Origin: an uncultured Dehalococcoidales bacterium
GTDB taxonomy: Bacteria > Chloroflexota > Dehalococcoidia > GIF9 > UBA5629
Direction of reading: 5' to 3'
Length of the DNA stretch: 64,000 nucleotides
Assembly (NCBI GenBank): GCA_964437795.1
Contig: CAYTIC010000001.1
Coordinates: 86,864 to 150,863, forward strand
In this document: piece after piece, positions 6,614 to 39,868 of the stretch
Position numbering within the stretch: the stretch's first letter is position 1
Layout: each line of letters begins with the position of its first letter
Program-made: the position numbers and the translations under genes
The notes under the pieces: model-generated
The model's input: only the letters and a program-made list of their open reading frames with translations
Database searches by the model: none
Told to the model about the DNA's origin: nothing

Positions 6614-6930
6614 TTAAGCAGATATTAACAACAGAGCAGGATTATCATCGATGTAGTCATATCTTACCAGCCAGTTTACAAAAGCTCTGATAGCTCTGTA
6701 GTAGGCGTGCTTCCCACCTAATCCACAGCTACGAATAGATATGAAGTAGTTGATACTTTCCGGAGTGAGAACGCGGTTGTTAACAAAGGGTATCAGGTAG
6801 GTTTTGTAGAAATCAATGGTATTGGGAGACAGACCTTGTCTTCTGGAATCCAGAAACTTTGTTAACAAGTCGAAGCTAAGTTTGTTAACAACTTTGTTAA
6901 CACAGATATGATTTGTAGCTGTAGATTGTA
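6614..6930 (-). pseudogene. tyrosine integrase, N-terminal SAM-like domain only (catalytic domain missing, no clear start codon)
   Basis: ...SFDLLTKFLDSRRQGLSPNTIDFYKTYLIPFV...GGKHAYYRAIRAFVNWLVRYDYIDDNPA* matches the phage-integrase N-terminal core-binding domain. The ORF stops where the catalytic domain should begin. The upstream part of track ORF 6614..7012 is simply tRNA-Leu read in frame. Confidence 0.6.
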
Positions 6931-6943
6931 GAGAAGGGGAAAG

Positions 6944-7026
6944 TGCCGAGGGAGGGACTTGAACCCACACTCCCGTGAGGGAAGCGGATTTTAAGTCCGC
7001 CGCGTCTGCCATTCCGCCACCTCGGC
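6944..7026 (-). tRNA. tRNA-Leu(TAA), type II with long variable arm, no encoded CCA
   Basis: Hand-folded: acceptor GCCGAGG/CCTCGGC, anticodon stem GCGGA/TCCGC with loop CTTAAAA, variable arm CCC-TCAC-GGG, T-loop TTCAAGT (one T-T mismatch in the T stem). Confidence 0.85.
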
Positions 7027-7391: not shown

Positions 7392-7672
7392 AAATTATAC
7401 TAAAAATATAAACTTTTTAAAGTGCAGTAAATCTTACAATAGCAGGTGAATATTGGCAAATGCCCGATGCCCTATCTCTGTAAAATTTTTCATGGCACTA
7501 TTTGAACAGATCAGTCACCTGCACTTTCATATAATTATTTCTCAAACTTCATGTTATATTCATAATTGTTCATTATAATCTCGGCGTTATACATTGGATT
7601 TTACGTATAGCATTTACCTGCGAACAGGATTACGTTATATTCTTCTTCGTTGGGATCATCAGGAGGATCAAA

Positions 7673-8938
7673 TTGAGAAAAACACTTCTATTAAGCCTTG
7701 CTGTAGTCATGTTGTTAGCTGGCGCCTGCACCTCTTCAACTGCACGACCGACACCGGCGGAAACACAGATTCCATCCCAACCCCCGCCGGCCACTGTTCC
7801 AGACCAGACGGTAACTCCCGCTTCCGGACAGGAACGGCTCCCCGAGCCAATAATTACCAATAACTCGGTAGAAATTTGTCTGAACAGCAGATATTCTGAG
7901 CATGGCCTCACCGGCACTGCCAGCGACCGGCAAATGTCTAATATTTTATGGGCCGCGGGTAAGGCACCGGTCACCGGGACATATCGCAATATCTATATAG
8001 CTACACCAAAAGGGGAATACTCATACAACCCCGGCACACACTCGCTGAATCAATATTCCGACCAGAAAGTGACTGACTATAATAATATTTTCACCAGTTT
8101 GAACGACAGGGCTTTTGTGATCAACTGCGATAGTAATCTACCCTTCGATACCGGCGTTGCCTATCAGCTAGCTATTCTGTCGTCTGTGTCATTGGGTAAA
8201 AGCAGCGAACCGGCCGTGGCAAACTGCCCGGTGATGACAAGCCTGCACTTTGGCGTACAGGGGGTGAGGGAGTTGACCCCCGAGCTGGTGGCACATTCCT
8301 CCGTGCCGCAAAGCGATCCCGGATGGCTGCCGGACCCATCAACAAATGGCCTGAATAAACTTGAAGATGTACTGGCTAATTTGAAGTATGTCACCAGGTT
8401 TTCCTCGGAAAACTTAACTCTGCAGCAGACATCTCAACTACTGTGGGCGGGCTACGGCTGCACTCCCCATCTGGCATTTGCAGGTCAGAGAGGTTTAACG
8501 GTACCTTCAGCCTCGGCCAGATATTATCTGACAGGTGAAATCTATCTGGTTAACGAAAAGGGAGTCTACCGCTACCAGAACAGGAATCCTAAAACAGACC
8601 TGACAACCGTAGACCATCGAATCGTGCCCATAAATACCACCGACGTAAGGGAACAACTGCGAGCTGCTGTCAGCAGTCTGCCACAGGCGCCGTGCTACAT
8701 AGTACTCTGCCTCCCCAAAACCGGTTGGCGTATCGCGGCAGAGCAAGAGTTTGCACTCGAAGAGGCGGGGTTTGTTGCCGGTAATGTTCTTCTCCAGGCA
8801 TCCGCTATCGGTTTGGGATGCAACTTCGAGACCACCTTGACCTCTGATGAGCAAACGGGCATTCAGAAATTGACCGGTATACCTTCTTCAGACACGCCAC
8901 AGGTCATCATCAGCATAGGCGGATTAGCCACTAAATAG
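7673..8938 (+). CDS. probable lipoprotein with two nitroreductase-fold (SagB/ThcOx-like) halves
   Basis: TTG start 8 nt after the AGGAGG-like caggagga. Signal MRKTLLLSLAVVMLLAGAC followed by a Pro/Thr-rich linker. The C-terminal half has QLLWAGYGCT...GLTVPSASARYYL..IYLVNEKGVYRY, typical of SagB-type nitroreductase domains. The N-terminal half is a weaker copy (SNILWAAGKAP...YIATPKGEYSY). Confidence 0.55.
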   Translation: MRKTLLLSLAVVMLLAGACTSSTARPTPAETQIPSQPPPATVPDQTVTPASGQERLPEPIITNNSVEICLNSRYSEHGLTGTASDRQMSNILWAAGKAPVTGTYRNIYIATPKGEYSYNPGTHSLNQYSDQKVTDYNNIFTSLNDRAFVINCDSNLPFDTGVAYQLAILSSVSLGKSSEPAVANCPVMTSLHFGVQGVRELTPELVAHSSVPQSDPGWLPDPSTNGLNKLEDVLANLKYVTRFSSENLTLQQTSQLLWAGYGCTPHLAFAGQRGLTVPSASARYYLTGEIYLVNEKGVYRYQNRNPKTDLTTVDHRIVPINTTDVREQLRAAVSSLPQAPCYIVLCLPKTGWRIAAEQEFALEEAGFVAGNVLLQASAIGLGCNFETTLTSDEQTGIQKLTGIPSSDTPQVIISIGGLATK

Positions 8939-9025
8939 AACCATCTATGGAATCGTCGTCTCATGCCCCTCTCAACCTCCCGCCGGCTGAACAGATTCCG
9001 GTTTGCCGCAATTATTAAAAATTTG

Positions 9026-9101
9026 TGGTACCCCTGGTGCGAGTCGAACGCACGACACGCGGTTTAGGAAACCGCTGCTCTATCCACTGAGCTACAGGGG
9101 C
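9026..9101 (-). tRNA. tRNA-Arg(CCT), CCA encoded
   Basis: Anticodon stem GCGGT/ACCGC with loop TTCCTAA, T arm GTGCG-TTCGACT-CGCAC, acceptor GCCCCTG/CAGGGGT (G1-T72 wobble). Confidence 0.85.
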
Positions 9102-9110
9102 ACGTCTCCG

Positions 9111-9761
9111 TTAACGCATACGCCGGACCCGGAAACCTTCAGGCGTTATATAACTGCCTTTGCCGGGCTCTTCAGCTGAAGGCTCCTTGCCCTCTCTGCG
9201 AACCGCGACTTCCTTGCCGCCCGTCGGCAACTCGGCTTTGGCCCTGGGTTTTCCGCTGTCCCGGGCTAACAAAACACCCTGTGGTGTCCTGGCCGGACCC
9301 TCGACTGTCTCCTCTTCTTCGGATGGCTTCTCAAGACGTCTCAAGGGCACCCTGCCGTCATCAGCCCTTAACTCGGACCTGGGCAGTTCCCTGGGCCTGA
9401 GCACCCTGCCGGTGCGGCCATAGCCGCGCAGCATCCTATCCTCGGTCACAGCAGGCTCTTCAATAGCAGCAACGGGGGCAGGGGCAGAAGGAGGCGGAAG
9501 CGCGCCGGTTTGGCGCATATCATTTAAGGTGGACTCCAGATCCTTGATCAGGTCGGTCAGCTCGATGGTATCGGCCTCCTCTTCCTCGGAGGCCCAGCTC
9601 TCGATCTCGGTGGCGTAATGCTGTAGTTTGAAGCTGTGTTGCTCAAGCTGTTTGATCCAGTCAGCCAGTTCCTTGGAAGCGTTCTGGATGTCGGGAATCT
9701 CAGTTTCAAGCAAATTCTTGATTAAATTCTGAACCGCGCTTTTTCTCGGCTTTGCAGCCAT
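9111..9761 (-). CDS. hypothetical protein (helical acidic N-terminus, disordered Arg/Glu/Pro-rich C-terminus)
   Basis: ATG at 9761 lies 6 nt after GAGG. No recognisable motif. Confidence 0.4.
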   Translation of the reverse strand: MAAKPRKSAVQNLIKNLLETEIPDIQNASKELADWIKQLEQHSFKLQHYATEIESWASEEEEADTIELTDLIKDLESTLNDMRQTGALPPPSAPAPVAAIEEPAVTEDRMLRGYGRTGRVLRPRELPRSELRADDGRVPLRRLEKPSEEEETVEGPARTPQGVLLARDSGKPRAKAELPTGGKEVAVRREGKEPSAEEPGKGSYITPEGFRVRRMR

Positions 9762-9860
9762 TTTCAACCTCGCTTTAACGGCCCGTACAATGATTCACAA
9801 TATCGTGACCGTAAGAAATTATAACAACGCACATGTACCAATGCAATGCGGGGAGGCAGA

Positions 9861-10118
9861 TCAGGCCTTGCGGACAAACACGTGATACTTGCCCGCAACC
9901 TCCTCAATGCCCAGGAACTCGTTGCCGGTCATCTTGGACCAGTTCGGCATGTCCTGCTTGATACCCTCATCATCAGCCACCACTTCCAGCACCTGACCCG
10001 GCTGCATGATCTTAATCTGTTTCGAAGTATTGACGATCGGCATGGGACAGTATAGCCCGATACAGTCGATGGTTATATCAGGTTTAAGGTTCTGCTTGAC
10101 ATTCTCTATCTCAGGCAT
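9861..10118 (-). CDS. tusA: TusA/SirA-family sulfurtransferase
   Basis: 85 aa. DCIGLYCPMPIV carries the conserved Cys-Pro-x-Pro active-site motif. Confidence 0.8.
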   Translation of the reverse strand: MPEIENVKQNLKPDITIDCIGLYCPMPIVNTSKQIKIMQPGQVLEVVADDEGIKQDMPNWSKMTGNEFLGIEEVAGKYHVFVRKA

Positions 10119-27118: not shown

Positions 27119-27147
27119 TTGACATCCCTATGGCTGCGGGCTACAAT
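27119..27147 (+). promoter_or_regulatory. sigma70-like promoter of tRNA-Gly(TCC)
   Basis: Consensus TTGACA (27119-24), 17-nt spacer, TACAAT (27142-47). The tRNA starts at 27160. Confidence 0.7.
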
Positions 27148-27159
27148 GAGTCACTGTTC

Positions 27160-27234
27160 GCGGGAGTAACTCAGCGGAAGAGTTCCTGCCTTCCAAGCAG
27201 GGTGTCGCGGGTTCGAATCCCGTCTCCCGCTCCA
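27160..27234 (+). tRNA. tRNA-Gly(TCC), CCA encoded
   Basis: Acceptor GCGGGAG/CTCCCGC, anticodon stem CCTGC/GCAGG with loop CTTCCAA, T arm GCGGG-TTCGAAT-CCCGT. Confidence 0.9.
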
Positions 27235-27683
27235 TAGATTGCGTTATAGAGTTCCGGTAAATGGGACGCCAGGTTATTATATTCCATCAGGCCCTGCAGG
27301 CAATTGTTACGCGCCAGGTCAATCATCTTATACGACAAGGACAATTTCATTCTCGCCGGTTGGTCGTCCTTCATCGTATACCCGAGCCAATAACGACTTC
27401 GGAACTCCGCGCCACCTGCGACGCGGCGGAGTATAAACTCTATGACGGCTTATTTTGCCGCCATGGTTTTATCTCTTAATTCCCGTGACTTGCTGTAAGG
27501 ACAAACTCCCTGTTTTCGTGAGGGTAGTGCCAGTCAACCATCTCACCAGATCCCTCATGTAGAACTTCCCTGGAAAAGCAACTCTTTTTCCGGTAGAACT
27601 TTTTTATTCGGGTAGAGATTGAAATCGATATTAACCGAATACTTTGATGCGGCTACGCATAGGAAATAGCCCAACCCTATTTT

Positions 27684-28472
27684 TCAATAAAAGACCGAAC
27701 CGGCGCATACATTAATTGCCTGTCCCGTTATGCCTTTCGCCTGATCAGACGCCAAATAAACCGCCGTATCGGCAATTTCTTCCGGCTCAATCAGCCGTCT
27801 CTGAATGGACATCGAAAGAACTTTTTCAGTAAGAACAGCTTCTCTCGTCAAGCCGGTGAGTCTTACAACCTCATCCAGGATCATTCCTTCCCCTGTCAAC
27901 ATATCTGTGTTTACAACACCCGGGCATATGGCATTAACAGTTATCCCGGATAAACCCAGAACTCCCAGTTCTGCTGCGAGTGTTCGCGTTAGGCCGATTA
28001 CCCCATGTTTGGATGCACAATAGGCAGAGTTTGTCACACTGGCCTGTTTGCCGGAAATCGAAGCTATATTAATAACTCTACCTTTACCAGCTTTGATTAT
28101 GTGCGGCATCACAGCCTTGGTAACGTTATATGTACCAAACAAATTTACTTCTATGGTATTACGCCAGATAAAGTCTTCTGATTCCCATAGAAAATAGCGC
28201 TTTCCTACAACGCCGGCGTTATTTATCAGGATTTCGATTTTCCCGTATTTGTCGATGATCTGTTGAATGCAGGACTGTATCTGCTCCGGTCGGGTAACGT
28301 CTAAAACGAGACCAAGTGTATTGTGCCCGATCTCAGTAGCGGTCTTTTGAATATCTTTGTTAACGTCGCCGATAACAACGGTTGCCCCTTCCCTTGCAAG
28401 TGCCGAAGCTATCTCCTTTCCAATGCCTCGATAGGCGCCGGTAACGAGCGCTACCTTACTGCTTAACATCAT
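27684..28472 (-). CDS. short-chain dehydrogenase/reductase (SDR)
   Basis: VALVTGAYRGIGKEIA (TGxxxGIG) and YCASK (YxxxK). Confidence 0.8.
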   Translation of the reverse strand: MMLSSKVALVTGAYRGIGKEIASALAREGATVVIGDVNKDIQKTATEIGHNTLGLVLDVTRPEQIQSCIQQIIDKYGKIEILINNAGVVGKRYFLWESEDFIWRNTIEVNLFGTYNVTKAVMPHIIKAGKGRVINIASISGKQASVTNSAYCASKHGVIGLTRTLAAELGVLGLSGITVNAICPGVVNTDMLTGEGMILDEVVRLTGLTREAVLTEKVLSMSIQRRLIEPEEIADTAVYLASDQAKGITGQAINVCAGSVFY

Positions 28473-28495
28473 TCGATATCCACCTCGATTATTGA

Positions 28496-29602
28496 TTATT
28501 TCACTTTGATCCTTCGTTTGGCATCAATCCCCATCAGTTTGGCCAGGTTAAGGCCGAATATCTTCCGGCGGTCTTCCTCAGTAATCGCCGGATAGCCGTA
28601 ATCCTTCTGCATGTCTTCAGGAATTTGAAATTCTCTCAATCCTTTAACCGCCACGCCCATTTGAACTGAAAATCCAGCGTAATCCGTGCCCCAAATAATC
28701 TTGTCGGGGCCAACCCAGCGCAACGCCTCACCGATAATCCTGGCGAATTTCCGCGGCTGTACTATGGCCCATGGTATTAAGAGCGAAAGGCAAGGATACA
28801 CGTTGGGATGCCCCATGGCCACCATGTTTAAGTCATCACAATACGGATAGCCCATATGGAACGCAACGATCTTCAGATTCGTGAAATCACGTGCCACGTC
28901 ATCGAGTTGGATGGGTAGGGCATACTTGCTCTTGCCAGGCGGGACCCAGCAAAAGCCCGTATGGATATCGAGCACAATGCCAAGTTCCTCAGCTTTCTGA
29001 TAGAACGGCCACAAATCTGGATCATTGATATAAGTGTCCTCAGGAGGATAAAACTTGAAAATCTTGGCGCCTTTTTCCTTAACCCAGTATTCGAGGTCCC
29101 AGATGGCGTTTTTAACTCCCCTGTGCTTTATTGGAGAAACATTTGGCTGGTACATGAACCTGTCAGGGTTAGATTCAACCACCTTGGCCATATCGCCGTT
29201 GGTCATCCAGCGGCTGCTGTACCCCGTCGTATCCATCATCGCCTCCGGCAGTAAACAGCCTATGTCCACGCCATACTTGTCCATCGAACGCAGCAGACTG
29301 GCAGGATCGGCGTTCTTTTCAATTTCCCATGGCTCGATCTCCTGAACTATTTCCGCAGGAGCTCCAGACATCAGAGGTCGGCCGATGCTCTCGATGGCTT
29401 TCCACCACATTTTCACGCCGGGATAATGATTGATTGGCCCCATATCGCCAATCAGATGTGATTCCGGATCAATTTTAAAATAATTGTCTTTTTCTACCTG
29501 TTTTGCTGCCACGTGTTCCTCCTTATAATTGCTTGATTTATTTAGCAATTGTTCGGCATAATTTCCCGTTGACACACCGGCATTTCTATACCGGTGTGTC
29601 AA
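28496..29602 (-). CDS. Amidohydro_2-family TIM-barrel hydrolase/decarboxylase-like enzyme
   Basis: 368 aa. ...DIHTGF..., ...AFHMGYPY... and WGTDYA resemble the metal-ligand pattern of the PF04909-type family. Confidence 0.6.
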   Translation of the reverse strand: MTHRYRNAGVSTGNYAEQLLNKSSNYKEEHVAAKQVEKDNYFKIDPESHLIGDMGPINHYPGVKMWWKAIESIGRPLMSGAPAEIVQEIEPWEIEKNADPASLLRSMDKYGVDIGCLLPEAMMDTTGYSSRWMTNGDMAKVVESNPDRFMYQPNVSPIKHRGVKNAIWDLEYWVKEKGAKIFKFYPPEDTYINDPDLWPFYQKAEELGIVLDIHTGFCWVPPGKSKYALPIQLDDVARDFTNLKIVAFHMGYPYCDDLNMVAMGHPNVYPCLSLLIPWAIVQPRKFARIIGEALRWVGPDKIIWGTDYAGFSVQMGVAVKGLREFQIPEDMQKDYGYPAITEEDRRKIFGLNLAKLMGIDAKRRIKVK

Positions 29603-29611
29603 GCGGATAGG

Positions 29612-30886
29612 CTACATATGGAAAGGTGGGGGTGGGGGAGGTAATTTAGCATAAGTATGAGGCACTACAGGTCCGACCCTCCTCTTGGGGAACAATTCCG
29701 GGTCATATTGTTCGTAGCCAAGTTCGGGATTGACCGAGCATCTCGGGGGATTGCCTACAACCGTGATCAGACACATGCAGTCTCTTTTACACTCAGCTAC
29801 TTTCTTGCCCGCTTTAACTTTATTCGGCCAATCTGGATCGGCCAGTGCCTGTCTGCCCAGCGATATCATGTCGCAAGCACCTTCGGACAAGGCTTTTTCG
29901 GCAACGTCCAGATTATTGACACCGGGGACAATGACCGGTATTTTAAGTACTGATTTAATTTCCTTTGCTTCCTTGAGAAGATGTTCTTCTACATGCTTGA
30001 TTGAACCCGGGGCGAAATAGTCGAGCGCCTCGTATGATCCGTCTGACAAATGGAGATAGGCAACGCCCAATTCTTCCACTTTCTTGGCCACGATTTTGAC
30101 TTCGTCTATCGTGATACCATCGGGCATGTGTTCCTGTGCGCTCATCCGTATGCCAACCGGCACGGCATCGCCCACGGCCGTGATCGCAGCTTGAGTGACC
30201 TCCAGCAGGAACCTCATCCGGTTTTCCAGGGAACCGCCGTACATATCGGTCCTCTTGTTGGAGCGGGGAGACAGGAATTGGTGTTCCAGGTAACCGTGGG
30301 GCGCATGGATCTCGATGCCGTCAAAACCAGCATAGACGGCCCTTCTGCAGGCCATGCCATACTCGTACACTTCTCTCTTGATCTCCTCGATCGTCATTTC
30401 CCTGGGGACCGGATTGTGTTGAGATATCTCCGCAACAACGCCAGGCATAGTTAGCAGGAAATCCACCATTTTCTTAGGCATTCTCTCTGGTGTCATTTCC
30501 ATAGGTATACGGGAAGGTGCCGGTGACGGCGATTTATCCAGTGCATGCCCCTGCCTGCCGAACCCGATGCTCAACTGGCAAAATATCTTGGCTCCAAAGT
30601 TGTGAACGGCCTGCGTCATCATGTACAGGCCGGGAACGAAGGACTCGTCATATAATAAAAGATTACGGTGATATACGTAGGGGGCCGCCAGCTTTGTTGC
30701 AATCACTGCGCCCGTAATAATCAGGCCAAAGCCGCCCTTCGCCCTGCGCGCAAGGTGCGCCATATCCTGCTGTGTGGCATACCCATCCTGCGTGGAATAT
30801 GTCATGTTCATAGGGGCCAGTGCAATCCGGTTGGGAATTTCCACATGCCTGATATGGATTGGATCAAAAAGTCCTTTCTCTGCCAT
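29612..30886 (-). CDS. Old-Yellow-Enzyme-family FMN oxidoreductase with a C-terminal Cys cluster (enoate/dienoyl-CoA-reductase-like N-terminal module only)
   Basis: Start moved to MAEKGLFDPI. NRIALAPM, HAPHGYLEHQFLSPRSNKRTDMYGGSLENR and C-x3-C-x-C-x10-C near the C-terminus. No FAD/NAD(P) domain. Confidence 0.7.
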   Translation of the reverse strand: MAEKGLFDPIHIRHVEIPNRIALAPMNMTYSTQDGYATQQDMAHLARRAKGGFGLIITGAVIATKLAAPYVYHRNLLLYDESFVPGLYMMTQAVHNFGAKIFCQLSIGFGRQGHALDKSPSPAPSRIPMEMTPERMPKKMVDFLLTMPGVVAEISQHNPVPREMTIEEIKREVYEYGMACRRAVYAGFDGIEIHAPHGYLEHQFLSPRSNKRTDMYGGSLENRMRFLLEVTQAAITAVGDAVPVGIRMSAQEHMPDGITIDEVKIVAKKVEELGVAYLHLSDGSYEALDYFAPGSIKHVEEHLLKEAKEIKSVLKIPVIVPGVNNLDVAEKALSEGACDMISLGRQALADPDWPNKVKAGKKVAECKRDCMCLITVVGNPPRCSVNPELGYEQYDPELFPKRRVGPVVPHTYAKLPPPPPPFHM

Positions 30887-30950
30887 TTGTAACCTCTCAA
30901 AATTTCTTAATATTATTGATATAGATAAATTTAGCACCGATTGCGATATA

Positions 30951-31367
30951 CTATGCGCTTGTTTGCGGCTTGAAAACGGGCAGGCTGATTAAATCAGTGC
31001 AATCCCTGAAAGTTACCTCCACATCCATGCCTATTTTTACGTCTTCCGGCTTGCACTCAACTATGTTGGTCATCATATGAATGCCTTCTTTCAGTTCAAC
31101 TATAGCCAATACATAGGGAAGATCAGGTGCAAAGACCGGCTCAACGCCACCCATCGTAACCGTCATTGCATGGACCTTGCCCCTTCCGCTGACTTCTTCC
31201 CAATCAAGGTTGCTGGACCAGCAGTAAGGACACACCTTGCGAGGATAAAAGATCAGCTTGCCGCAGTCACTGCATTTCTGCATGACCAGTCTGTGCTGTT
31301 TGGTTGCTTCCCAGAACTTCTTGCTCCATGGAGTAATCTCCGGAAGCGGCTTGGTATATGTATTCAT
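30951..31367 (-). CDS. DUF35-type OB-fold/zinc-ribbon protein
   Basis: 138 aa. CSDCGKLIFYPRKVCPYCWS rubredoxin-like knuckle followed by an OB-fold region. 4-nt overlap with the thiolase-like gene. Confidence 0.75.
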   Translation of the reverse strand: MNTYTKPLPEITPWSKKFWEATKQHRLVMQKCSDCGKLIFYPRKVCPYCWSSNLDWEEVSGRGKVHAMTVTMGGVEPVFAPDLPYVLAIVELKEGIHMMTNIVECKPEDVKIGMDVEVTFRDCTDLISLPVFKPQTSA

Positions 31368-32545
31368 TTAAGGTCCCTCCCAAATATCTCAATAATCATA
31401 TTCATGCCTGATCCGCCAGAACAGTTCATCAGTACGTGTTTGCAGTTCTTAACCTGCCGTTCACCGGCCTTACCCATCAGCTGGCGCGCAGTTTCCACCA
31501 GGTAGGCAAAACCTACGCCAGAACCCGTGTGACCGCGGGACAGGGCGTCACCGATGGTAGAGCACGGCAGCTTCCCTCCCGGCCAGGTATTGCCTTCCGC
31601 AATGAAACGCACGGCTTCCTTGCCATCCTTGCACACGCCAAGAGCCTCCAGTAGAACGGGCATAAGGATCGGATACGCGCAGTAAAGTTCCAGTATGTTC
31701 ATATCCTTGATCGTAAGCCCAGCCTGTTTGAATGCATCCTGGGCAGCCTGCTTAGACTGCATTAACATCGTGTCATCGGTTCGCTGGGTCATTGTTGCCT
31801 GTAAATAGCGGGCGCCTTCTCCAAGTTTATACACAGGTGTCTTGCAGATCCTTTTCGCTATCTCGGGTGAAGTTACAATCAGTGCCCCACCGCCGTCAGC
31901 CAGCATATTGCACTCCATAGAATGCAATGGTGTGCTGATCATCTTGGTTGACAGCACCTTCTCCACGGTCAGTGGTTTGCGGTACATGGCATTGGGGTCG
32001 AGCTCTGCCCACTTCCTGAAGGCCACAGGAATTGAGGCCATCTCTTCGGCTGTTATGCCATAGTGTTGCATAAAACGGGCCGTATTCATGGCCACCATGC
32101 CGTTATATGTGGTGCCAAAGGGATATTCCCATTCCATGGACATCCCGGCTGTGGCAAAGGTATGGATAGTCACGTTGGGGTCAATGCTGGTGTACTTTGA
32201 AGCATGCATGATCAGAACAATCCTGGCGATGCCGTTGGTTATCCAGTGTTCCGCCATTCTGAGCAGGTTGGCGGATGTTGAACCTCCCCCATTCACTGTT
32301 ACCATGTCCCGGCATCCTTTAAACCCCAGCTCCTCCGGCAGCTTGCCAAAGACCAGTTCGGAGTCAAGCTTGGGCTGGCCTACTGCCGGTGAACAGATGA
32401 CTCCTTCTATCTCATTTTTATTAATTCCGGCGTCATTGACAGCTTGCATGCACGAGTCATAGATAATGTCCCATTCATGCCGCTCGGGATACCACCCCGT
32501 AGGAACCTCACCTATGCCTACAATTGCTATTTTGCCTTTACTCAT
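31364..32545 (-). CDS. SCP-x/thiolase-superfamily protein lacking the nucleophilic cysteine (Ltp2-like aldolase candidate)
   Basis: 393 aa with thiolase-like architecture (...SRGHTGSGVG..., NCSGGSG). At the position where the paralog 41386..42633 has NVENACAGAS, this protein reads TVNGGGSTSA. Confidence 0.65.
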   Translation of the reverse strand: MSKGKIAIVGIGEVPTGWYPERHEWDIIYDSCMQAVNDAGINKNEIEGVICSPAVGQPKLDSELVFGKLPEELGFKGCRDMVTVNGGGSTSANLLRMAEHWITNGIARIVLIMHASKYTSIDPNVTIHTFATAGMSMEWEYPFGTTYNGMVAMNTARFMQHYGITAEEMASIPVAFRKWAELDPNAMYRKPLTVEKVLSTKMISTPLHSMECNMLADGGGALIVTSPEIAKRICKTPVYKLGEGARYLQATMTQRTDDTMLMQSKQAAQDAFKQAGLTIKDMNILELYCAYPILMPVLLEALGVCKDGKEAVRFIAEGNTWPGGKLPCSTIGDALSRGHTGSGVGFAYLVETARQLMGKAGERQVKNCKHVLMNCSGGSGMNMIIEIFGRDLK

Positions 32546-32611
32546 AAATCACGATCCTCCATTTAATAATCTATTGCATGATTACTTCGTTAGCCTGCTG
32601 AAATTACCTCA

Positions 32612-33430
32612 CTATTTGGCCTTCCATACCGGCTGTCTTTTCTCCATGAAGGCTATAGGGCCCTCAACAGCGTCCTCGGTCCCCGCGACAAGACTGCCAG
32701 CCGACCTTTCCAGCGCTAATGCAGCATCGATGTCGGCAATTTCAATACAATTGTTAAAAACCATCTTTGCCATCCTGACCGCCACCGGCGATTCGCCGGC
32801 TATCTTTTTGGCTATTTCCATTACGGTCTTTTCCAGTTCACTGAAGGGTACAACCTTGTTTACAATCCCCAGTTCAAGCGCCTCGTGCGCTGTAATGCGC
32901 CCGGCAGTGAGCAGAAGCTCCTTGGCCTTACGCACCGGCATCGACCGGGCAAAACGCACGATTCCACCCGACCCCGGCAGGATACCCAGGCCCACCTCGG
33001 TGATGCCAAACATGGCATTCTCTGAAGCTATGATGAAGTCACATGCCAACGCATATTCGAGGCCGCCGGCATAGCAGTAACCGTTTACAGCCGCGATGAT
33101 CGGTTTTTCCATCCTCTCCATCAGTCGGTGCGATTCATAACACACGTTGCGCAGATAATTGTAAGTGCCTAAAGATGTACCTATTCCCTCAAATGGAATA
33201 GAAAAATCCTGCCCCGAGGAGAACGCTTTGTCACCACTGCCCGTCAAAATGACGACCCTCGTCCCGCTATCGGCCTGGGCGTCAAGCAGGCATTCACGCA
33301 ACTCGATAAGCATCGGCGCATGCATAGCATTACGCCTTTGCGGGTTGTTGAAAACAATGCGGGCGATGAAATCCTTCTTCTCATAGATTATGTACTTGTA
33401 ATTAGCTTCAGCCATTTTGACCTCCATCAA
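32612..33430 (-). CDS. enoyl-CoA hydratase/isomerase (crotonase family)
   Basis: RRNAM, AAVNGYCYAGGLEYALACD, ITEVGLGILPGSGG. The start may be the internal ATG (MAEANYKY). Confidence 0.8.
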   Translation of the reverse strand: MMEVKMAEANYKYIIYEKKDFIARIVFNNPQRRNAMHAPMLIELRECLLDAQADSGTRVVILTGSGDKAFSSGQDFSIPFEGIGTSLGTYNYLRNVCYESHRLMERMEKPIIAAVNGYCYAGGLEYALACDFIIASENAMFGITEVGLGILPGSGGIVRFARSMPVRKAKELLLTAGRITAHEALELGIVNKVVPFSELEKTVMEIAKKIAGESPVAVRMAKMVFNNCIEIADIDAALALERSAGSLVAGTEDAVEGPIAFMEKRQPVWKAK

Positions 33431-33442
33431 TGTAACTAATAC

Positions 33443-34606
33443 TTAAAAGGATCTCGGCAGCCCCATCAGTTCACCGATGAAATTGCGGGCCATCTCGTTG
33501 CTGATCGGTGCGAAGGTGAACTGACGGGCGTCACGGAAGTAGCGTTGTATATCGCTCTCCGCCATCACGCCGGCGCCCGCGAAAATCTCCATGGCATTGG
33601 TCGTAGTCTTAACAGCGGCCTCAGACGCGCACACCTTGGCGGCTGCAGCTTCGAAATAGCATGGCTGATCCTTTGCAAACAACCATGCCGCTTTGTAGGT
33701 CATCAGCCTGGCAAGCTCGATCTCGATCGACATGTCGGCAAGCCAGTGCTGCAACACCTGGAATTGTCCGATAGGCTTGCCGAAGGCAGTCCTGGTCTTG
33801 GCATAATCCAGGGCAAGTTCAAACGCACCCTGGGCAAGGCCCACTGTCGTGGCCGCACAGACGATCCGTTCGGGATTTAGCAGTGTAATCAACTGGAAGA
33901 ACCCGTTGTTGAGTTGCCCCAGCAGGTTCTCTTTAGGCACCCTGACATCTGTGAAAAATACTTCATTGGCGCCTGAACCCCGCATACTGATTTTATGCAG
34001 CGGACGAATCTCGACACCCGGGCTCTTGAGATCTATGATCAGAAGTGACATTGCGCGATGCCGTTTGGCAGCATCTTTATTTGTGATCACCAGGGTCATA
34101 ATATAAGGTGCCACATGTGCTCCTGTGATGTATATCTTTTGACCATTTACTACAAAGTTATCACTGTCTTCTACGGCCGTGGTCCTTAAAGCGCCCAGCA
34201 AATCTGTCCCACCGCCCGGCTCGGTGAGACCGATGCAGAAACCTGTTTCAGCTTTGGCCATCTTTGGCAGGTATTCTTTCTTCTGCTTTTCATTTCCGTG
34301 GGCCTCAATCAGCCGGACGAACATGCCGCCGCCCAGGCCAAATGCTGCGGCCGGAGAACGGCGGCTCACCTCTTCGATGATGATAATCTCATCGACGAAA
34401 TCCCCCCCGGTCCCGCCATACTCGCCTGGGAGCTGGCAAGAGGTAAGGCCTAATTCAGCAGCCTTGAGGTGTATTTGATACGGCATCCAGGACATGCTTT
34501 CATCGGCATCCCACTTGCGGACAAATTCGATTGGCAGCTCACGATCGACGAACTCGCGCACGGTTGCGCGCAACATCTTTTGGGCTTCACTGAATTCAAA
34601 ATCCAT
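33443..34606 (-). CDS. acyl-CoA dehydrogenase
   Basis: 387 aa. GLTEPGGGTD, and the C-terminal catalytic region ...IFAGAGVMAESDIQRYFRDARQF. Confidence 0.8.
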   Translation of the reverse strand: MDFEFSEAQKMLRATVREFVDRELPIEFVRKWDADESMSWMPYQIHLKAAELGLTSCQLPGEYGGTGGDFVDEIIIIEEVSRRSPAAAFGLGGGMFVRLIEAHGNEKQKKEYLPKMAKAETGFCIGLTEPGGGTDLLGALRTTAVEDSDNFVVNGQKIYITGAHVAPYIMTLVITNKDAAKRHRAMSLLIIDLKSPGVEIRPLHKISMRGSGANEVFFTDVRVPKENLLGQLNNGFFQLITLLNPERIVCAATTVGLAQGAFELALDYAKTRTAFGKPIGQFQVLQHWLADMSIEIELARLMTYKAAWLFAKDQPCYFEAAAAKVCASEAAVKTTTNAMEIFAGAGVMAESDIQRYFRDARQFTFAPISNEMARNFIGELMGLPRSF

Positions 34607-34654
34607 TTTTCTCCTTTATACAACTATAAATGTGAGCAACTAAAAAGGGCCGCA

Positions 34655-36253
34655 TTATTGTTTGACTGGCTTGGCCTTGTATTTCTCCCTCACATCTTTG
34701 CGCAGCAATTTGCCCACCGCGGTCTTGGGGAGAGGATCCGGACTGAACTCGATGATTTTGGGACATTTATAGCCGGCCAGGTGCCTCCTGGTAAAATCAA
34801 TAATCTCTTTTTTTAATTCCAGCTCTTTGCCTTTGTATTTATTACTATAGTCTGTCTTCAGATAGATTTCTGCCAATACCTTTTCACCCCACTCCAGGTC
34901 CGGCACCCCGATCACGATTGCTTCTGAAACCGCGGGGTGCTTGTACAAAACATCCTCCACCTCAAACGGGTAAACCTTTTCCCCGCCGCTTTTTATCATA
35001 TCCGAAGCCCGGTCGGCCAGATATATAAACCCGTCCTCGTCAAAACTGCCTATATCTCCTGTATAATACCAGTCTCCTTTTTTTACTTTCCTGGTTTTAG
35101 CTTGATCTTTCCAGTATTCCTTCATGGTTGACTTGCTTTTAACTATGACTTCGCCGATCTCTCCCGTTTTGCATTCATTGCCCTTGTCATCCACGATCTT
35201 TATCTCGCTGACGAGGGAAGGCCTGCCAACCGATTTAAGCCTGCGTAACTCTTTTTCTGTCCCCTCAATCACGTGATCCTTAGCCAGAAAGGTAGTCCAG
35301 GGTCCACCCTCGGTTGCACCATAACCCTGCGCAAGGATTCTTCCAAATTTCCGAATACACTGCTTGAGTACTTCGGAAGGCATGGGGGCACCGGCATAAG
35401 AGAAGGACGTAATACTGCTGAGATCATATTTATCAATGTCGGGGTCGTTGACAAGCCAAAAATACACGGTGAGCACAGCATTCATATGGGTAATCTTTTC
35501 CTTTTGGATCGCTTCAAAAATCTTCTTAAGATCAGGACGGTTGACCATAACGACCTTATCACCGGTGAAGTGGAGAGTCAGTATTGGCCATAACGAAATA
35601 TGGAAAGCAGGTAAAATAAAAAGGGTAGCGTCATCATCGCTTGTAGCTATGCCGGTTTTCAGGTTACTGAGGACGCATCCCAATGTATAGGTCATAAGAC
35701 TACGATGCGTTAAAACTGCCCCCTTGGGTAATCCGGTGGTTCCCCCGGTATACATGAGCATGGCAGTATCGCTTTCTTTTATAGCAACCTTGGGTTCTTC
35801 GGGTGATCCCTTTTCAACCAGGTCCTCATAGGAAATCATGCCCGGGACCTTGTCAACGGCGCTGATGTAATATTTGATATTGTTCAAAGCCGGCTTTAGA
35901 GCCTCTACCGTATCTTTGTACTCAGGGCCGATAATCAGGCCGACGGAATCGGAATGGAGGATGATGTGTTGAAGCTCGCTGGGATGCAATCTGAAATTTA
36001 AAGGTACAGGAATTATGCCTGTCTTTGCCATGGCATAGTAGAGCTCTACAAACCTGTGGCAGTTCTCCATCAATATGGCAACGTGGTCACCCTTATTCAG
36101 TCCCATACCTTTCAAAGAGTTCGCAAGCCGGTTAATCCTCTCGTTAAATTGTTTCCAGGTATACCTTACTTCACCATAACCGGAGCACACCATGCAGATT
36201 TTATTCGGGTCTAGCCTGGACCACCTGGTTGGGATGTCACCAAGTATTTCCAT
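34655..36253 (-). CDS. AMP-dependent acyl-CoA synthetase/ligase
   Basis: MLMYTGGTTGLPKG, GYGATEGG, WYYTGD, GKLLRKDVR. Confidence 0.8.
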   Translation of the reverse strand: MEILGDIPTRWSRLDPNKICMVCSGYGEVRYTWKQFNERINRLANSLKGMGLNKGDHVAILMENCHRFVELYYAMAKTGIIPVPLNFRLHPSELQHIILHSDSVGLIIGPEYKDTVEALKPALNNIKYYISAVDKVPGMISYEDLVEKGSPEEPKVAIKESDTAMLMYTGGTTGLPKGAVLTHRSLMTYTLGCVLSNLKTGIATSDDDATLFILPAFHISLWPILTLHFTGDKVVMVNRPDLKKIFEAIQKEKITHMNAVLTVYFWLVNDPDIDKYDLSSITSFSYAGAPMPSEVLKQCIRKFGRILAQGYGATEGGPWTTFLAKDHVIEGTEKELRRLKSVGRPSLVSEIKIVDDKGNECKTGEIGEVIVKSKSTMKEYWKDQAKTRKVKKGDWYYTGDIGSFDEDGFIYLADRASDMIKSGGEKVYPFEVEDVLYKHPAVSEAIVIGVPDLEWGEKVLAEIYLKTDYSNKYKGKELELKKEIIDFTRRHLAGYKCPKIIEFSPDPLPKTAVGKLLRKDVREKYKAKPVKQ

Positions 36254-36404
36254 TACATTACCTCCACATTATTCATTGCTATTTGATCTGGCCGCCTCAG
36301 TTAAATGTATCTATACCGTTACCCGATTCAATATGACAATTTTCCGCTTCCACATATATAACAACAAGCCACCCAAAGCTTGAGTTAAACCTGATTTTAG
36401 TTTC

Positions 36405-36965
36405 TTATTTTTTCGGCCTGATAGATCTGTGAGGTTCCTTAAAACCTGATATCTGCCGCATAGCCTCTTCCGCCCATTCCAGGAAAAGCTTATCCTGCTT
36501 TATCGCCAGATCACCGATAAGCAGCCAATAGAGTACGTCCAATTCGCTGCCTTTCAAGTTTTTCTCTATCGCAATGGTAGCTTCTGTCTCATAATATTGA
36601 ACTTCATTTTTAATCTGTGCAGCATAGGATCTTATGTTCGCAATCATATATTTTTTGTCGACACGACTTGCATACCACATTTGCATCAAATGGGGTTCAC
36701 GACTTGCCTCCACCTTCATAGGGGTTTTCAACCACTTCTCCAGTACACTACGTCCCGACTTTGTAATATGAAAAACATTTTTATCTGGATATTTCTTTTG
36801 ATTAACCCGCTTGTACTCCACCAACCCGTCCTCTGCCATCCCATTAAGTTGCCTGTATACAATACTTAACGTAGGCCTGACTGTTTTAAAAAACATCTTG
36901 TGAAGCTGATATCCTGATTTTGGCCCATAGCTCAGAAACCCCAGTAATCCATGTTTCAACGACAT
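36405..36965 (-). CDS. PadR-family transcriptional regulator
   Basis: 186 aa. The N-terminal wHTH LLGFLSYGPKSGYQLHK...VYRQLNGMAEDGLVE is typical of PadR. First gene of the island operon. Confidence 0.75.
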   Translation of the reverse strand: MSLKHGLLGFLSYGPKSGYQLHKMFFKTVRPTLSIVYRQLNGMAEDGLVEYKRVNQKKYPDKNVFHITKSGRSVLEKWLKTPMKVEASREPHLMQMWYASRVDKKYMIANIRSYAAQIKNEVQYYETEATIAIEKNLKGSELDVLYWLLIGDLAIKQDKLFLEWAEEAMRQISGFKEPHRSIRPKK

Positions 36966-36993
36966 ATTAATCTCTCACCAGTTAAATTCTTAG

Positions 36994-37053
36994 TTCAGTA
37001 CTGTACTAGTACAGTACTGAACATATACTACTACTGTTAAATTTTGTTGTCAA
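36994..37053 (-). promoter_or_regulatory. padR promoter with an overlapping perfect 28-bp palindromic operator
   Basis: On the minus strand: TTGACA (37053-48), 17 nt, TAGTAT (37030-25). Then TTCAGTACTGTAC-TA-GTACAGTACTGAA (37021-36994), which is its own reverse complement, covers the expected TSS 29 nt before the padR ATG. Confidence 0.55.
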
Positions 37054-37327
37054 GTCCATTCATTATGTTTATTAGGCGGGTACGGGGGTACTTCTTGACG
37101 CTGTTTTTCAGCTTTGATATATTGGCGAGTTTTACGGTTGTTCCACTTCTGGGGGATGCTTCATTTCCATGCAAAATAAAGCCAAATACTTGCCCCACAG
37201 GCAAGTGTGCTAAAATTAGGCAAGTAAAGTGATGGGAGGGCTGAAAACAGCGACAACCTGCCTGCTTGAATTTTCAGGCGTTTTTTTCGGATTATTACGA
37301 TCAAAATCGGTTTAAAATCGGGTTATT

Positions 37328-37373
37328 CCTTCCAAGCAGTGTGTCGCGGGTTCGAATCCCGTCTCCCGCTCCA
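37328..37373 (+). repeat. displaced 3' fragment of tRNA-Gly(TCC); distal att-type repeat of island 2
   Basis: 45/46 nt identical to 27189-27234 (G27201 versus T37340). Confidence 0.85.
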
Positions 37374-37457
37374 ACAGTTTCTAAATCTGCCCTGTGCGAC
37401 AGATAATTTATGTCTGAACACCCTGACCGAAAAGCTTCCTCCAATATTTTCAATATA

Positions 37458-38549
37458 CTAACCATAGAATCCGAAATCACTAATAGCCTTTGTCAGCATG
37501 TAGAAATTGTACGGCGGCGTTGACGGCGGCGTCTCACAGGCCGTCATGAGGATATACCCATTGGGAGCATCTTTGCCGGCCTGGATACATCCTTTAGCGG
37601 CCTGATAGACCTCATCGGCAGTCCCGCCGGCAACAAGTGACGTGCTGAGATTGCCGGCAATAATATGGTTTGAACCGAAGTATTTTATTCCATCCTCAAG
37701 GCTGACCTGCTGCCCCAGGCTGACGATACCGGGATCGCCCATAGGCACCTGGCTCCATAACGGCAGGTTCTTGTTCTGCTCTCCACATATATGGCATAAA
37801 ATATACTTAACGCCCAATCCCAGTATCTCCTTGTGCAGTTTATGCTGGTCGGGCAACACGAATTCTTCGAAATGTCGTGGCGATATAATGGAGTTGGCGG
37901 CAAGGGGTTCCCATATTTGCACCAGCAGTCGCTTTGTGCCGAAAACCTTGACCCATAGCCTGGCCGCGCTCAAGATATGATCGGCCGCCAGTTGCACAAC
38001 CCTGTGAACCGCTTCCGGCTCCTTGATGATCCACTTGCACAGATTTGTTACACCACAGATGTTGCCTGCCGTGGTAAATGCGCCGCCCACTACCAGGCTG
38101 ATAAGACAGCCCTGGCTTTCCTGTATTCTGGAAAACTCCAGCGCCTTTGGAAGACAGCCTGCTGTCTGCGGATCCGGAAGCCTGAGCTTATCTATGTCAT
38201 CAAGCGACTGTACAGGGTAGCGTTTACTTCGGGGCGATTGGACCGAATCGCTGTTCGGGAACTCAACTTCCCCGCCGAACTCGCTCGTCCCATAGACAGC
38301 ACTGCCGAAAAATGGATCCTGGTCGTATCCGTACATTTGCTGCGTCCAAAGCTGGGCATCGAAACTCCGCACAGGTTCGCTGTACACCGTACCTATAGGA
38401 TACCCGACGTTTTTAGCGCTGAAACCCAGTGAAAAGGGGAAAAAAGGCACACGGTCGATTTGTTTCCCGTTCAAAAGAGAGTTTACCCGTTCGATGGATG
38501 TCATTTTATCCCTGTTATTCATTAAATTCAGGCTAGTATCCATCAACAC
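37458..38549 (-). CDS. uroporphyrinogen-decarboxylase-family protein (MtaA/CmuA-like methyltransferase type)
   Basis: 363 aa. IDRVPFFPF... N-terminus and overall URO-D-like pattern. No corrinoid protein is adjacent. Confidence 0.55.
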   Translation of the reverse strand: MLMDTSLNLMNNRDKMTSIERVNSLLNGKQIDRVPFFPFSLGFSAKNVGYPIGTVYSEPVRSFDAQLWTQQMYGYDQDPFFGSAVYGTSEFGGEVEFPNSDSVQSPRSKRYPVQSLDDIDKLRLPDPQTAGCLPKALEFSRIQESQGCLISLVVGGAFTTAGNICGVTNLCKWIIKEPEAVHRVVQLAADHILSAARLWVKVFGTKRLLVQIWEPLAANSIISPRHFEEFVLPDQHKLHKEILGLGVKYILCHICGEQNKNLPLWSQVPMGDPGIVSLGQQVSLEDGIKYFGSNHIIAGNLSTSLVAGGTADEVYQAAKGCIQAGKDAPNGYILMTACETPPSTPPYNFYMLTKAISDFGFYG

Positions 38550-38923
38550 CTCGCACTTGCTAATCTTATCTCAGCTTTATCCAATACATATTCTCTCAAA
38601 TGGGGCATTTTCTATCAATACTTAGGCCTATAAACTGCAGGAATAAACACTCTGCCCAACCAGCGATCAACCTTAATTTTATAGCTAACAAACCCGAGAC
38701 TATAACAGCTTTAAATGAATCCCGCATAAAACCCGGTAATCCTTGCTGCGCAAGGACTCTAATATTAGATACTGTCGGGTACACTGACTCTTTTGTGATT
38801 GCTGTATTCCAAGCGTATAATTCTAAATATCCGTTGATGACCCTGATTGATGCGGTTGGCGAAGTGCAAAACGAAGACAAAATATTCCCCTGAAATACAG
38901 TCTATATAGGAGGTTCAAAAACT

Positions 38924-39424
38924 ATGAACACCCCTGAAGAAAAACAGAAACGCGAAAAGCCAGTACTTGACTTGCCGGACATAAACGAAGTGGCGGACAA
39001 GTTATTAGAACAGGGTAAAATATCGAATATGCAGGCTGCCCAGCTTAAAATGTGGTATTCAGCCATGCCTGATATAAATTCCGGCAGCGCAAAATTTGAA
39101 GCCTGGAAGAAAGCGCGGCCCGATATAGATGTACCGGGACTATTCACCCCCGGAGAAGGATCAAAGCCAATACTTGATTTGCCGAGCTTGAGTGAAATGG
39201 CGGAAAAGATGGCCAAAGATGGTGTAAAGCCTATCCTTGATATGCCGGACATGAACGAAGTGGCGGATAAGCTGTTTGAACAGGGCAAAATATCCAATAT
39301 GCAGGCTGCCCAGATCAAAATGTGGTATTCAGTCAAGCCGGATAAGAATGCGGGCCTGGCGAAATTTGAAGCCTGGAAGAAAGCGCATCCTGCTATAGAT
39401 ATTCCCGGCCTGTTCCCGGAGTAG
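38924..39424 (+). CDS. hypothetical protein built from an internally duplicated 63-aa unit
   Basis: Strong RBS TAGGAGGT. Residues 12-74 and 102-164 are near-identical (KP[VI]LD[LM]PD[IM]NEVADKL.EQGKISNMQAAQ.KMWYS...AKFEAWKKA.P.ID.PGLF), with a partial third copy at residues 81-101. Confidence 0.6.
   Translation: MNTPEEKQKREKPVLDLPDINEVADKLLEQGKISNMQAAQLKMWYSAMPDINSGSAKFEAWKKARPDIDVPGLFTPGEGSKPILDLPSLSEMAEKMAKDGVKPILDMPDMNEVADKLFEQGKISNMQAAQIKMWYSVKPDKNAGLAKFEAWKKAHPAIDIPGLFPE
38957..39415 (+). repeat. tandem intragenic duplication (two 189-nt units 270 nt apart plus a partial unit)
   Basis: The DNA of 38957-39145 and 39227-39415 aligns with high identity by eye (for example gaagtggcgga.aag, atatgcaggctgcccag, aaatttgaagcctggaagaaagcgc). 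Confidence 0.7.
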
Positions 39425-39504
39425 GCAAACTGACCCGGCAACTGTAGCGAAAATTAAGTCCACTGGATAGCCCAGCCATGGTTAATAATGGCCGGTTGCG
39501 AAAT

Positions 39505-39807
39505 TCATTCTCCCAGTGGTTTGCCGCTGATAAGGTAGAAAATCAGCGACGCAATCGTAAATAATACCGGTACACTCAGGACCGCAGCAATCACTATTAA
39601 AGCCACCAACCAAAAGCCCTTCGGTTTAAATCTCAGTATTACCCCTATTATGCCGAGGACGAGGCCTGCGATAAAGATAAGCAGGCCTATGATGTCCGTA
39701 TCTATACCAAAGTAATGATAGAGCGGAATGACCAGCAGGAATGTGACTATCCCTGCCGCCATTATTATCAGGGCCGCGGTTATCAGCTTTCCAAATCGCT
39801 TCACCAT
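39505..39807 (-). CDS. small integral membrane protein (3 TM)
   Basis: 100 aa, almost entirely hydrophobic helices. Confidence 0.5.
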   Translation of the reverse strand: MVKRFGKLITAALIIMAAGIVTFLLVIPLYHYFGIDTDIIGLLIFIAGLVLGIIGVILRFKPKGFWLVALIVIAAVLSVPVLFTIASLIFYLISGKPLGE

Positions 39808-39868
39808 ATCATCCTTCCTGTTATCTTTCTAATTACCTTCTTCCGCCTGTAACACGAAAACGGTATAT

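Follow-up and report, generated by a model that had tools for sequence, protein, structure and literature searches.

A probable decayed catabolic island in tRNA-Gly(TCC) of an uncultured Dehalococcoidales bacterium

ICEclc-type islands occupy tRNA-Gly genes of Pseudomonas and Burkholderia, where they carry catabolic genes on about 100 kb of DNA together with an integrase and a conjugation system. In Dehalococcoides, which belongs to the same bacterial class as the organism studied here, islands associated with ssrA deliver reductive dehalogenase genes and keep their recombinase genes. Here we describe a 10.1-kb island at 27235-37327 of a 64,000-nucleotide stretch (the window) from an uncultured Dehalococcoidales bacterium (assembly GCA_964437795.1, contig CAYTIC010000001.1, positions 86,864 to 150,863). 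It lies between an intact tRNA-Gly(TCC) gene and a displaced fragment of that gene. Like ICEclc, the island places a catabolic pathway in a tRNA-Gly 3' end flanked by a repeat of that end; unlike ICEclc, it spans only 10 kb and possesses neither integrase nor conjugation system. The ssrA islands are likewise site-specific and marked by repeats of a small-RNA-gene 3' end, but they target a tmRNA gene, bring other cargo and retain their recombinases.

The Islander database (Hudson, Lau and Williams 2015, PMC4383910) delimits tyrosine-integrase islands by an intact tRNA gene and a displaced fragment of it, and anticodon-centred sites form its commonest class. The island resembles these tDNA islands in its regenerated tRNA at one end, its displaced 3' fragment starting at the anticodon loop at the other, and its foreign cargo. 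It differs from them in lacking an integrase gene, with only cargo pseudogene stumps beside the tRNA. Cis-mobilisable elements (CIMEs), described in streptococci, are decayed relics of integrative and conjugative or integrative and mobilisable elements that keep both attachment sites, attL and attR (PMC5704250). The island also retains both att cores while integration and transfer genes are absent; unlike CIMEs, it shows no remnants of a relaxase or type IV secretion system (T4SS) and no tandem element, and its host belongs to the Dehalococcoidia. Taken together, the locus is a decayed, CIME-like tRNA-integrated island that is probably fixed. We consider it quite likely that an integrative element inserted itself into the 3' half of tRNA-Gly(TCC) through site-specific recombination of the tyrosine-integrase type, and that the interval is what is left of this element after the loss of its integrase. 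A sequence-only reading of the window had proposed a metabolic island inserted by such an event, and repeat geometry, empty sites and foreign composition support that proposal.

The two copies of the direct repeat are 46 nt long and identical at 45 of 46 positions (98%), the sole difference being G27201 in the proximal copy and T37340 in the distal one. ARAGORN, Rfam and the repeat search thus bear out the recurrence of the tRNA 3' end with a single mismatch. For a 26-mer of the repeat, shuffles of the window give 0.00 expected copies. Its first base corresponds to tRNA index 30, three nucleotides 5' of the anticodon and one nucleotide before the anticodon loop. A promoter-like site of the intact tRNA gene lies at 27119-27147 (promoter scan, 11/12). 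At the distal copy, neither ARAGORN nor Rfam calls a tRNA, and the 29 nt upstream of it show no likeness to the tRNA 5' half in an alignment. Identity follows a step, 98% over 46 nt and then noise, rather than a uniform decay. Because the tRNA 5' half is unmatched and no tRNA model scores, the distal copy is a sharp-edged fragment and not a decayed second gene; the explanation of the repeat by a second, degenerate tRNA did not hold. A third, degenerate tRNA-Gly fragment, which would be a sign of tandem islands, was looked for in the window and not found. The right end of the island and the T-variant repeat are reproduced at 100% identity in Logan assemblies from three runs (contigs L044-L046). 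These contigs break within the repeat, as expected for a k=31 graph; Logan contigs that carry padR end inside it.

Relatives for comparison were gathered by a protein scan with the left flank, one genome per species, and comprise Dehalococcoidia contigs from metagenome-assembled genomes (MAGs) at about 80% DNA identity. The tRNA-Gly gene is 100% identical in three MAG contigs (L002, L006, L008) and in an IMG/VR contig (L023), and all four of these tRNA-carrying relatives lack both the island and a second repeat copy. Synteny with the window ends at 27234 in the relatives and restarts at 37328 onward in L002 and L023. The post-tRNA flank of L023 matches the 52 nt after the distal copy at 38 of 52 ungapped positions, as compared with only 12/52 for the 52 nt after the proximal copy and 12.9+-3.2 for random 52-mers of the window; blastn aligns 37328-37429 to it at 84% over 102 nt. 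The L002 flank agrees with the window's distal flank at 16/25 over the first 25 nt. In L006 and L008 the downstream flanks have diverged beyond alignment with the window, and the native-flank match is confined to L023 and L002. Since the post-tRNA sequence of these two contigs matches 37374 onward and not 27235 onward, the native tRNA flank has moved by 10.1 kb. The empty site that comparison with related genomes was expected to reveal, tRNA-Gly followed directly by the homologue of 37374 onward, is therefore present in L023 and L002.

Other candidate controls were less useful. L003 has no tRNA-Gly, its synteny with the window being lost ahead of that site, and L004 ends just past the syntenic block. 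Exact-protein look-ups with flanking genes for the same species with an empty site returned no match or just short Logan contigs. The best empty-site contig, L023 (1-9540), is classed as viral in IMG/VR, and upstream of its tRNA-Gly promoter it has nothing in common with the window, so that different DNA lies 5' of the tRNA. In L008, about 2.3 kb of extra sequence (7630-9980), including a radical SAM protein gene, separates tRNA-Val from a conserved left-flank gene and has no counterpart in the window. The displaced flank was also considered as a terminator hairpin and rejected, its fold being no better than that of shuffles (z=0.04).

Composition sets the island apart from its surroundings. 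Its GC content is 0.483, compared with 0.541 in the rest of the window and 0.55-0.58 in the related loci. At third codon positions, the nine island genes have a mean GC of 0.550 (range 0.45-0.62), whereas the value for 39 other genes is 0.680, a difference with a Mann-Whitney p of 5e-6. The dinucleotide delta* of the island is 44.9, whereas host 10-kb windows give 19.4+-5.4 with a maximum of 28.9. Tetranucleotide distance is 0.0195, against 0.0074+-0.0007 for the host, and both measures place the island beyond all host windows. The AT-richness noticed at first sight is thus borne out after computation, but the low-GC zone does not end at the distal repeat and reaches about 40.5 kb.

The sequence beyond the repeat forms a second low-GC segment (37374-39868) with a URO-D-like gene (37458-38549) and three open reading frames (ORFs) without a Pfam match. 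This segment is missing in L002, which has cupin, D-serine-dehydratase-like, thiolase and peptidase genes between tRNA-Gly and a TetR gene. No att repeat was found for it. Within the ORF at 38902-39441 (179 aa, no Pfam match), a 190-nt stretch occurs twice at 38956-39415, with 82% identity and a spacing of 270 nt, and the ORF is predicted to encode an internally repeated protein.

Integrase genes of tRNA-integrated islands usually adjoin the tRNA. At this position (27235-27683), the sequence-only reading had found no integrase, which stands, and only short, unconvincing ORFs, which does not, as two pseudogene fragments can be identified (Table 1). The first resembles PhlG, the hydrolase of 2,4-diacetylphloroglucinol (DAPG). 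Its final few codons and stop are gone, its frame reads into the tRNA, and it is cut 9 nt from the tRNA; its only database relatives, P0121 and P0122, extend beyond the point where the window's copy meets the tRNA. A search for an intact parent gene beside an att site gave two short fragments only. The truncation is a deletion scar, and its location matches the place where a second islet in the window, at tRNA-Leu, keeps an integrase stump. The second fragment, from a coenzyme A (CoA) transferase gene, is interrupted by an in-frame stop as well as a frameshift. It follows the gene for a short-chain dehydrogenase/reductase (SDR), a position that corresponds to the SDR-then-CoA_trans order intact in contig L048.

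No integrase was detected in the island by Pfam, in the nine genes or in six-frame pieces of 27235-27700 and 36950-37330 (E<=10). Twelve tyrosine integrases also served as tblastn queries, namely the tRNA-Gly-targeting integrase of contig L038 and 11 homologues of the tRNA-Leu-islet stump; their best match in the island has E=0.28. The proposed tBLASTn check for remnants beside the tRNA thus found none, in line with integrase absence. Recombinase, relaxase/T4SS and virion genes are likewise missing from the island, where Pfam gave metabolic and regulatory families only. Among the window ORFs scanned, no intact integrase occurs. Two integrase candidates were rejected: a 363-aa ORF right of attR is URO-D-like, and a low-GC 366-aa ORF at 5237-6337 is an acyltransferase. 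Both att cores are present, but the island-side arm at attL amounts to 9 nt followed by the truncated gene. This apparent deletion of the arm argues for an island that is fixed rather than mobilisable, and makes cis-mobilisation doubtful. Of the two fates considered at the outset, fixation is therefore favoured and mobilisation in trans appears less likely. The earlier claim that the island lost its integrase is backed by the tRNA-proximal scar, the lack of a remnant and the stump in the second islet; we infer the former presence of the integrase, and likewise the order of events.

The second islet offers a parallel within the same window. The last 54 nt of tRNA-Leu(TAA) recur with 100% identity. 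Here too the repeat begins three bases 5' of the anticodon, and the intervening 2.1 kb have a GC content of 0.37-0.40. The stump directly after the tRNA has 204 relatives in a library of 1.84 billion proteins (phmmer). The ten longest of these (10/10) carry the Phage_integrase PF00589 catalytic domain downstream of the matched stretch. In tblastn (E 1e-14 to 1e-27), only the first ~165 residues of the stump relatives are represented in the window. The ORF is thus a tyrosine integrase gene cut before its catalytic domain. With this stump in one islet and none in the other, the tRNA-Leu islet would stand midway in integrase loss and the tRNA-Gly island at its completion.

The following course of events would account for the locus. 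The attP of the element would have carried tRNA-Gly positions 30-75 and recombined with the chromosomal gene. This would have regenerated tRNA-Gly at the left junction, attL, while the original 3' part and its native flank were pushed 10.1 kb away to attR. The cargo, a PadR-controlled CoA-dependent operon of the beta-oxidation type, would have come from a lower-GC Dehalococcoidia gene pool. Later deletions may then have taken the integrase and the island-side arm by the tRNA, leaving the 5' stump of the CoA-transferase gene fused to the 3' stump of the PhlG-like gene. The present state would be a CIME-like relic with both core repeats and no mobility genes, most likely fixed.

Other elements show that this tRNA is targeted. 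L038 (IMGVR_UViG_3300015370_000504) holds a phage-like element of 9.6 kb whose genes encode HNH, large terminase, protease-capsid fusion, portal and tyrosine integrase proteins. It is bounded by tRNA-Gly(TCC) fragments at 79-125 and 9686-9732 that start in the anticodon loop, and has no full tRNA; its integrase ORF extends across one of the fragments. Possibly L038 is of satellite size and belongs to a tandem array. A prophage end in L032 carries a 50-nt fragment 98% identical to the window's tRNA-Gly. Tyrosine-integrase elements and prophages thus do use this tRNA-Gly site.

The T variant itself is not confined to the window. A metagenome scan with the T-variant 46-mer found it at 6023-6068 of L025 (Ga0315276_10011316) and 1109-1154 of L024 (Ga0315278_10130323). 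These contigs represent a different genome of GC 0.43-0.49, in which the fragment ends a cargo unrelated to the island, encoding zinc-chelating, metallo-beta-lactamase-fold, HAD, radical SAM and solute-binding proteins. They contain no integrase within 6 kb and no complete tRNA. The island-side sequences beside the T-variant fragments of the window and of L024/L025 have nothing in common. If the crossover was anticodon-centred, the T should be a post-integration mutation whose recurrence in L024/L025 is coincidental. If the crossover lay 3' of the T position, the T would be borne by the element, and both islands would derive from elements that shared one att core. The idea of the T as a natural tRNA allele balanced by a second, compensatory change was rejected, as the second change in L025, at index 27, pairs with 41 and not with 42. 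In scans of viral contigs, neither the right arm of the island nor the T-variant core had a match.

These observations invite a different account, in which the island is still a mobile, integrase-less cassette, a functional CIME or one mobilised in trans: a tyrosine integrase encoded elsewhere, on a prophage, an ICE or the chromosome, would act on the 46-nt cores to excise and integrate the cassette, and tRNA-Gly(TCC) would dock interchangeable cargo modules in these Dehalococcoidia. Such a cassette is compatible with cores that are nearly intact (45/46 nt), with a cargo block in L024/L025 that ends in the same G-to-T fragment with no integrase nearby, and with a T that would be element-borne in both cases if the crossover lay 3' of it. 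Phage-type integrases that target this tRNA exist, and CIMEs are a documented category (PMC5704250). The attL island-side arm nevertheless seems to be gone, with a truncated gene 9 nt from the tRNA, and the island-side sequences of the T-variant fragments share nothing. The viral contigs scanned have neither the island arm nor the T variant, no intact integrase occurs among the window ORFs scanned, and the tRNA-Leu islet shows that decay occurs in this genome. On balance, a still-mobile cassette is unlikely. A broader version, in which tRNA genes of this clade dock small integrase-less modules moved in trans by a shared integrase, draws on the two modules in one 64-kb window and on the G-to-T change shared with L024/L025, element-borne if the crossover was 3' of it. 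We regard it as distinctly unlikely; if true, cassettes would be exchanged in this clade by a system that has tRNA att cores as its basis.

The reading as an inserted and decayed island has points against it. Integrase, excisionase and transfer genes have left no trace in the tRNA-Gly island, and their earlier presence is putative. The occurrence of the distal T in the unrelated island of L024/L025 is not explained by a simple post-integration mutation. The left junction across the repeat has no independent confirmation, because Logan contigs end inside the repeat. The empty-site relatives are only about 80% identical in DNA, their post-tRNA regions are all variable, and they may, though improbably, have lost the island instead of the window having gained it. 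Under that last view, the island would be ancestral at tRNA-Gly and the seemingly empty relatives would have lost it by recombination between the repeats, consistent with a T-variant fragment in another lineage and with the variability after the tRNA in every relative. Several independent and precise losses would be required, however, to leave 4/4 tRNA-carrying relatives with neither island nor second repeat copy. The composition of the island is also far from that of the host and unameliorated, and in other genomes the operon is found among core genes, away from tRNA genes. Ancestral presence is thus very improbable. It is harder still to credit that there was no insertion at all and that the distal repeat is what decay has left of a second tRNA-Gly gene, or the join an assembly chimera. 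The window is probably a metagenome assembly, and k=31 assemblies break inside the repeat. The 46-nt repeat is, however, shorter than the k-mers of commonly used metagenome assemblers, and the right junction recurs at 100% in three independent runs (L044-L046). The identity profile is stepwise with no tRNA model scoring at the distal copy, and the native flank starts exactly after it.

Table 1. Features of the tRNA-Gly(TCC) island, its junctions and the tRNA-Leu(TAA) islet, in window coordinates.
Feature	Position	Strand	Evidence
tRNA-Gly(TCC), intact	27160-27234	+	ARAGORN; Rfam 66.3 bits
attL core, tRNA 3' 46 nt through CCA	27189-27234	+	repeat search; 0.00 by chance
PhlG/DAPG-hydrolase-like pseudogene stump, C-terminal ~70 codons	27237-27449	-	PF18089 E=3.1e-10, profile 153-223 of 223
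CoA-transferase alpha-subunit pseudogene stump, first ~45 codons	27450-27588	-	blastn 72% to L011 CoA_trans start; tblastn E=7e-8
SDR, probably 3-hydroxyacyl-CoA dehydrogenase step	27684-28472	-	Pfam adh_short 2.6e-57; 66% aa identity to SDR of L019 operon
Amidohydro_2 family enzyme	28496-29602	-	Pfam 5.8e-33; distant PDB relatives only: 3irs, LigW 4icm
Old-yellow-enzyme (OYE)-type FMN ene-reductase	29612-30937	-	Pfam Oxidored_FMN 1.1e-71; PDB OYE/YqjM class
DUF35/ChsH2-type zinc-ribbon + OB protein, partner of thiolase-like protein	30951-31367	-	Pfam PF12172, PF01796
SCP-x-type thiolase-like protein	31364-32545	-	Pfam Thiolase_C_1; PDB 7pxp_C, 6ok1
Enoyl-CoA hydratase (crotonase)	32612-33430	-	Pfam ECH_1 2e-61
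Acyl-CoA dehydrogenase	33443-34606	-	Pfam, three ACAD domains
AMP-forming acyl-CoA ligase	34655-36253	-	Pfam AMP-binding 5.5e-83
PadR-family regulator	36405-36965	-	Pfam PadR + Vir_act_alpha_C
padR promoter-like site, then perfect 30-nt palindrome	37053-37025; 36993-37022	-	promoter scan; opposite-strand self-match
attR, displaced tRNA-Gly 3' fragment, T at 37340	37328-37373	+	repeat search; independent assemblies
Native tRNA-Gly 3' flank, shifted 10.1 kb by insertion	37374-37429	+	L023 flank match, blastn
tRNA-Leu(TAA) islet, whole	4755-7026	-	blastn-short, Pfam, phmmer, tblastn
tRNA-Leu(TAA)	6943-7026	-	
Tyrosine-integrase N-terminal stump, 105 codons, directly after tRNA-Leu	6617-6931		
Acyl_transf_3 gene, 366 aa, GC 0.37	5237-6337		Pfam
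Perfect 54-nt repeat of tRNA-Leu 3' part	4755-4808		blastn-short

The cargo of the island consists of nine minus-strand genes, and Pfam confirms all nine of the families that had been assigned from the sequence alone. The description of the operon as complete does not hold relative to related operons, as its CoA-transferase genes have decayed. An exact copy of the acyl-CoA dehydrogenase occurs in one Logan contig (SRR13723397), and exact copies of the PadR protein in four. The predicted pathway would likely involve activation by the ligase, desaturation by the acyl-CoA dehydrogenase, hydration by the crotonase, oxidation by the SDR and C-C cleavage by the thiolase-like and DUF35 proteins. The genes of these last two adjoin with a stop/start overlap at 31364-31367. 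PDB relatives of the thiolase-like protein, BbsB and Ltp2 among them, include a benzoylsuccinyl-CoA thiolase subunit (7pxp_C) and a lipid-transfer protein (6ok1), and the two genes appear to form a pair of the BbsAB or Ltp2-ChsH2 type, with predicted thiolase or aldolase activity. The ene-reductase also has 2-naphthoyl-CoA reductase (6qkg, OYE module) and 2,4-dienoyl-CoA reductase (1ps9) among its PDB relatives; this enzyme and the Amidohydro_2 enzyme suggest a ring or conjugated system in the substrate. We infer a bulky alicyclic or aryl-substituted carboxylic acid as the substrate class. In Rhodococcus hydroxycinnamate catabolism (cou), an amidohydrolase-superfamily enzyme performs the final deacetylation step (PMC4737184), a precedent for the Amidohydro_2 enzyme in such cargo. 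As in the BbsAB and Ltp2-ChsH2 pathways, which degrade side chains or rings by beta-oxidation-type steps, and in the cou pathway, the island brings together a CoA ligase, an acyl-CoA dehydrogenase, a crotonase, an SDR, an SCP-x-type thiolase with DUF35 and an Amidohydro_2 enzyme. Its enzymes are nonetheless only distantly similar in sequence to the characterised ones, and any orthology to CouO, BbsAB or Ltp2 would be tentative.

The region upstream of padR adds a regulatory element. In front of padR, the -10 element of the promoter-like site is followed immediately by a perfect 30-nt palindrome, GTTCAGTACTGTACTAGTACAGTACTGAAC (36993-37022), which occurs once in the window and is absent from the homologous operons compared. 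The palindrome is a plausible candidate for a PadR operator with an autoregulatory role, and this sigma-70-like promoter with a palindrome ahead of padR supports the earlier description of the pathway as self-regulated. The right end of the island (36966-37327) comprises the promoter-like site, the palindrome and two terminator-like hairpins; six-frame Pfam searches found no coding remnant in it.

Homologous operons point to the origin of the cargo. Thiolase-like homologues 84-91% identical to that of the island are found in operons of the same families on other Dehalococcoidia contigs. The homologous operons of L011, L015 and L019 have a GC content of 0.47-0.51, which the composition of the island matches. 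No tRNA gene or att sequence was found at the homologous loci, and in L048 the operon stands beside thrS-infC-rpmI-rplT-pheST. Because these operons of about 0.48 GC lie away from tRNA genes, the cargo can be read as captured chromosomal DNA of a lower-GC lineage. The donor pool would likely be lower-GC (~0.48) Dehalococcoidia, in which the operon is ordinary chromosomal DNA.

The operon family is also modular. The ene-reductase gene follows the ligase gene in the homologous operons (L011, L015, L019), whereas it follows DUF35 in the window. Genes for CoA-transferase, SDR and ABC transporters come and go among the variants. Starting 235 bp upstream of padR, L011 and L012 share 99.9% identity, but to the left of this point, at about position 4700, they are completely different: one has a pyrroloquinoline quinone (PQQ) beta-propeller gene and the other a Mg-chelatase-like gene. 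A rearrangement in that lineage could explain this break just ahead of the operon, as could an assembly breakpoint.

The island leaves the understanding of genomic islands unchanged. Decayed tRNA-integrated islands are a familiar type, and the bacterial class that hosts this one has been little studied. It illustrates the decay of islands in place, with one relic that keeps an integrase stump and one that does not. It also provides a case, controlled by empty sites, of a whole CoA-dependent degradation operon moved horizontally between uncultured Dehalococcoidia lineages, whose metabolism is known almost solely from genomes. With a regulator, a candidate operator and eight enzymes, the cargo forms a clean and testable unit through which to learn what compounds these bacteria, abundant in sediments, break down.

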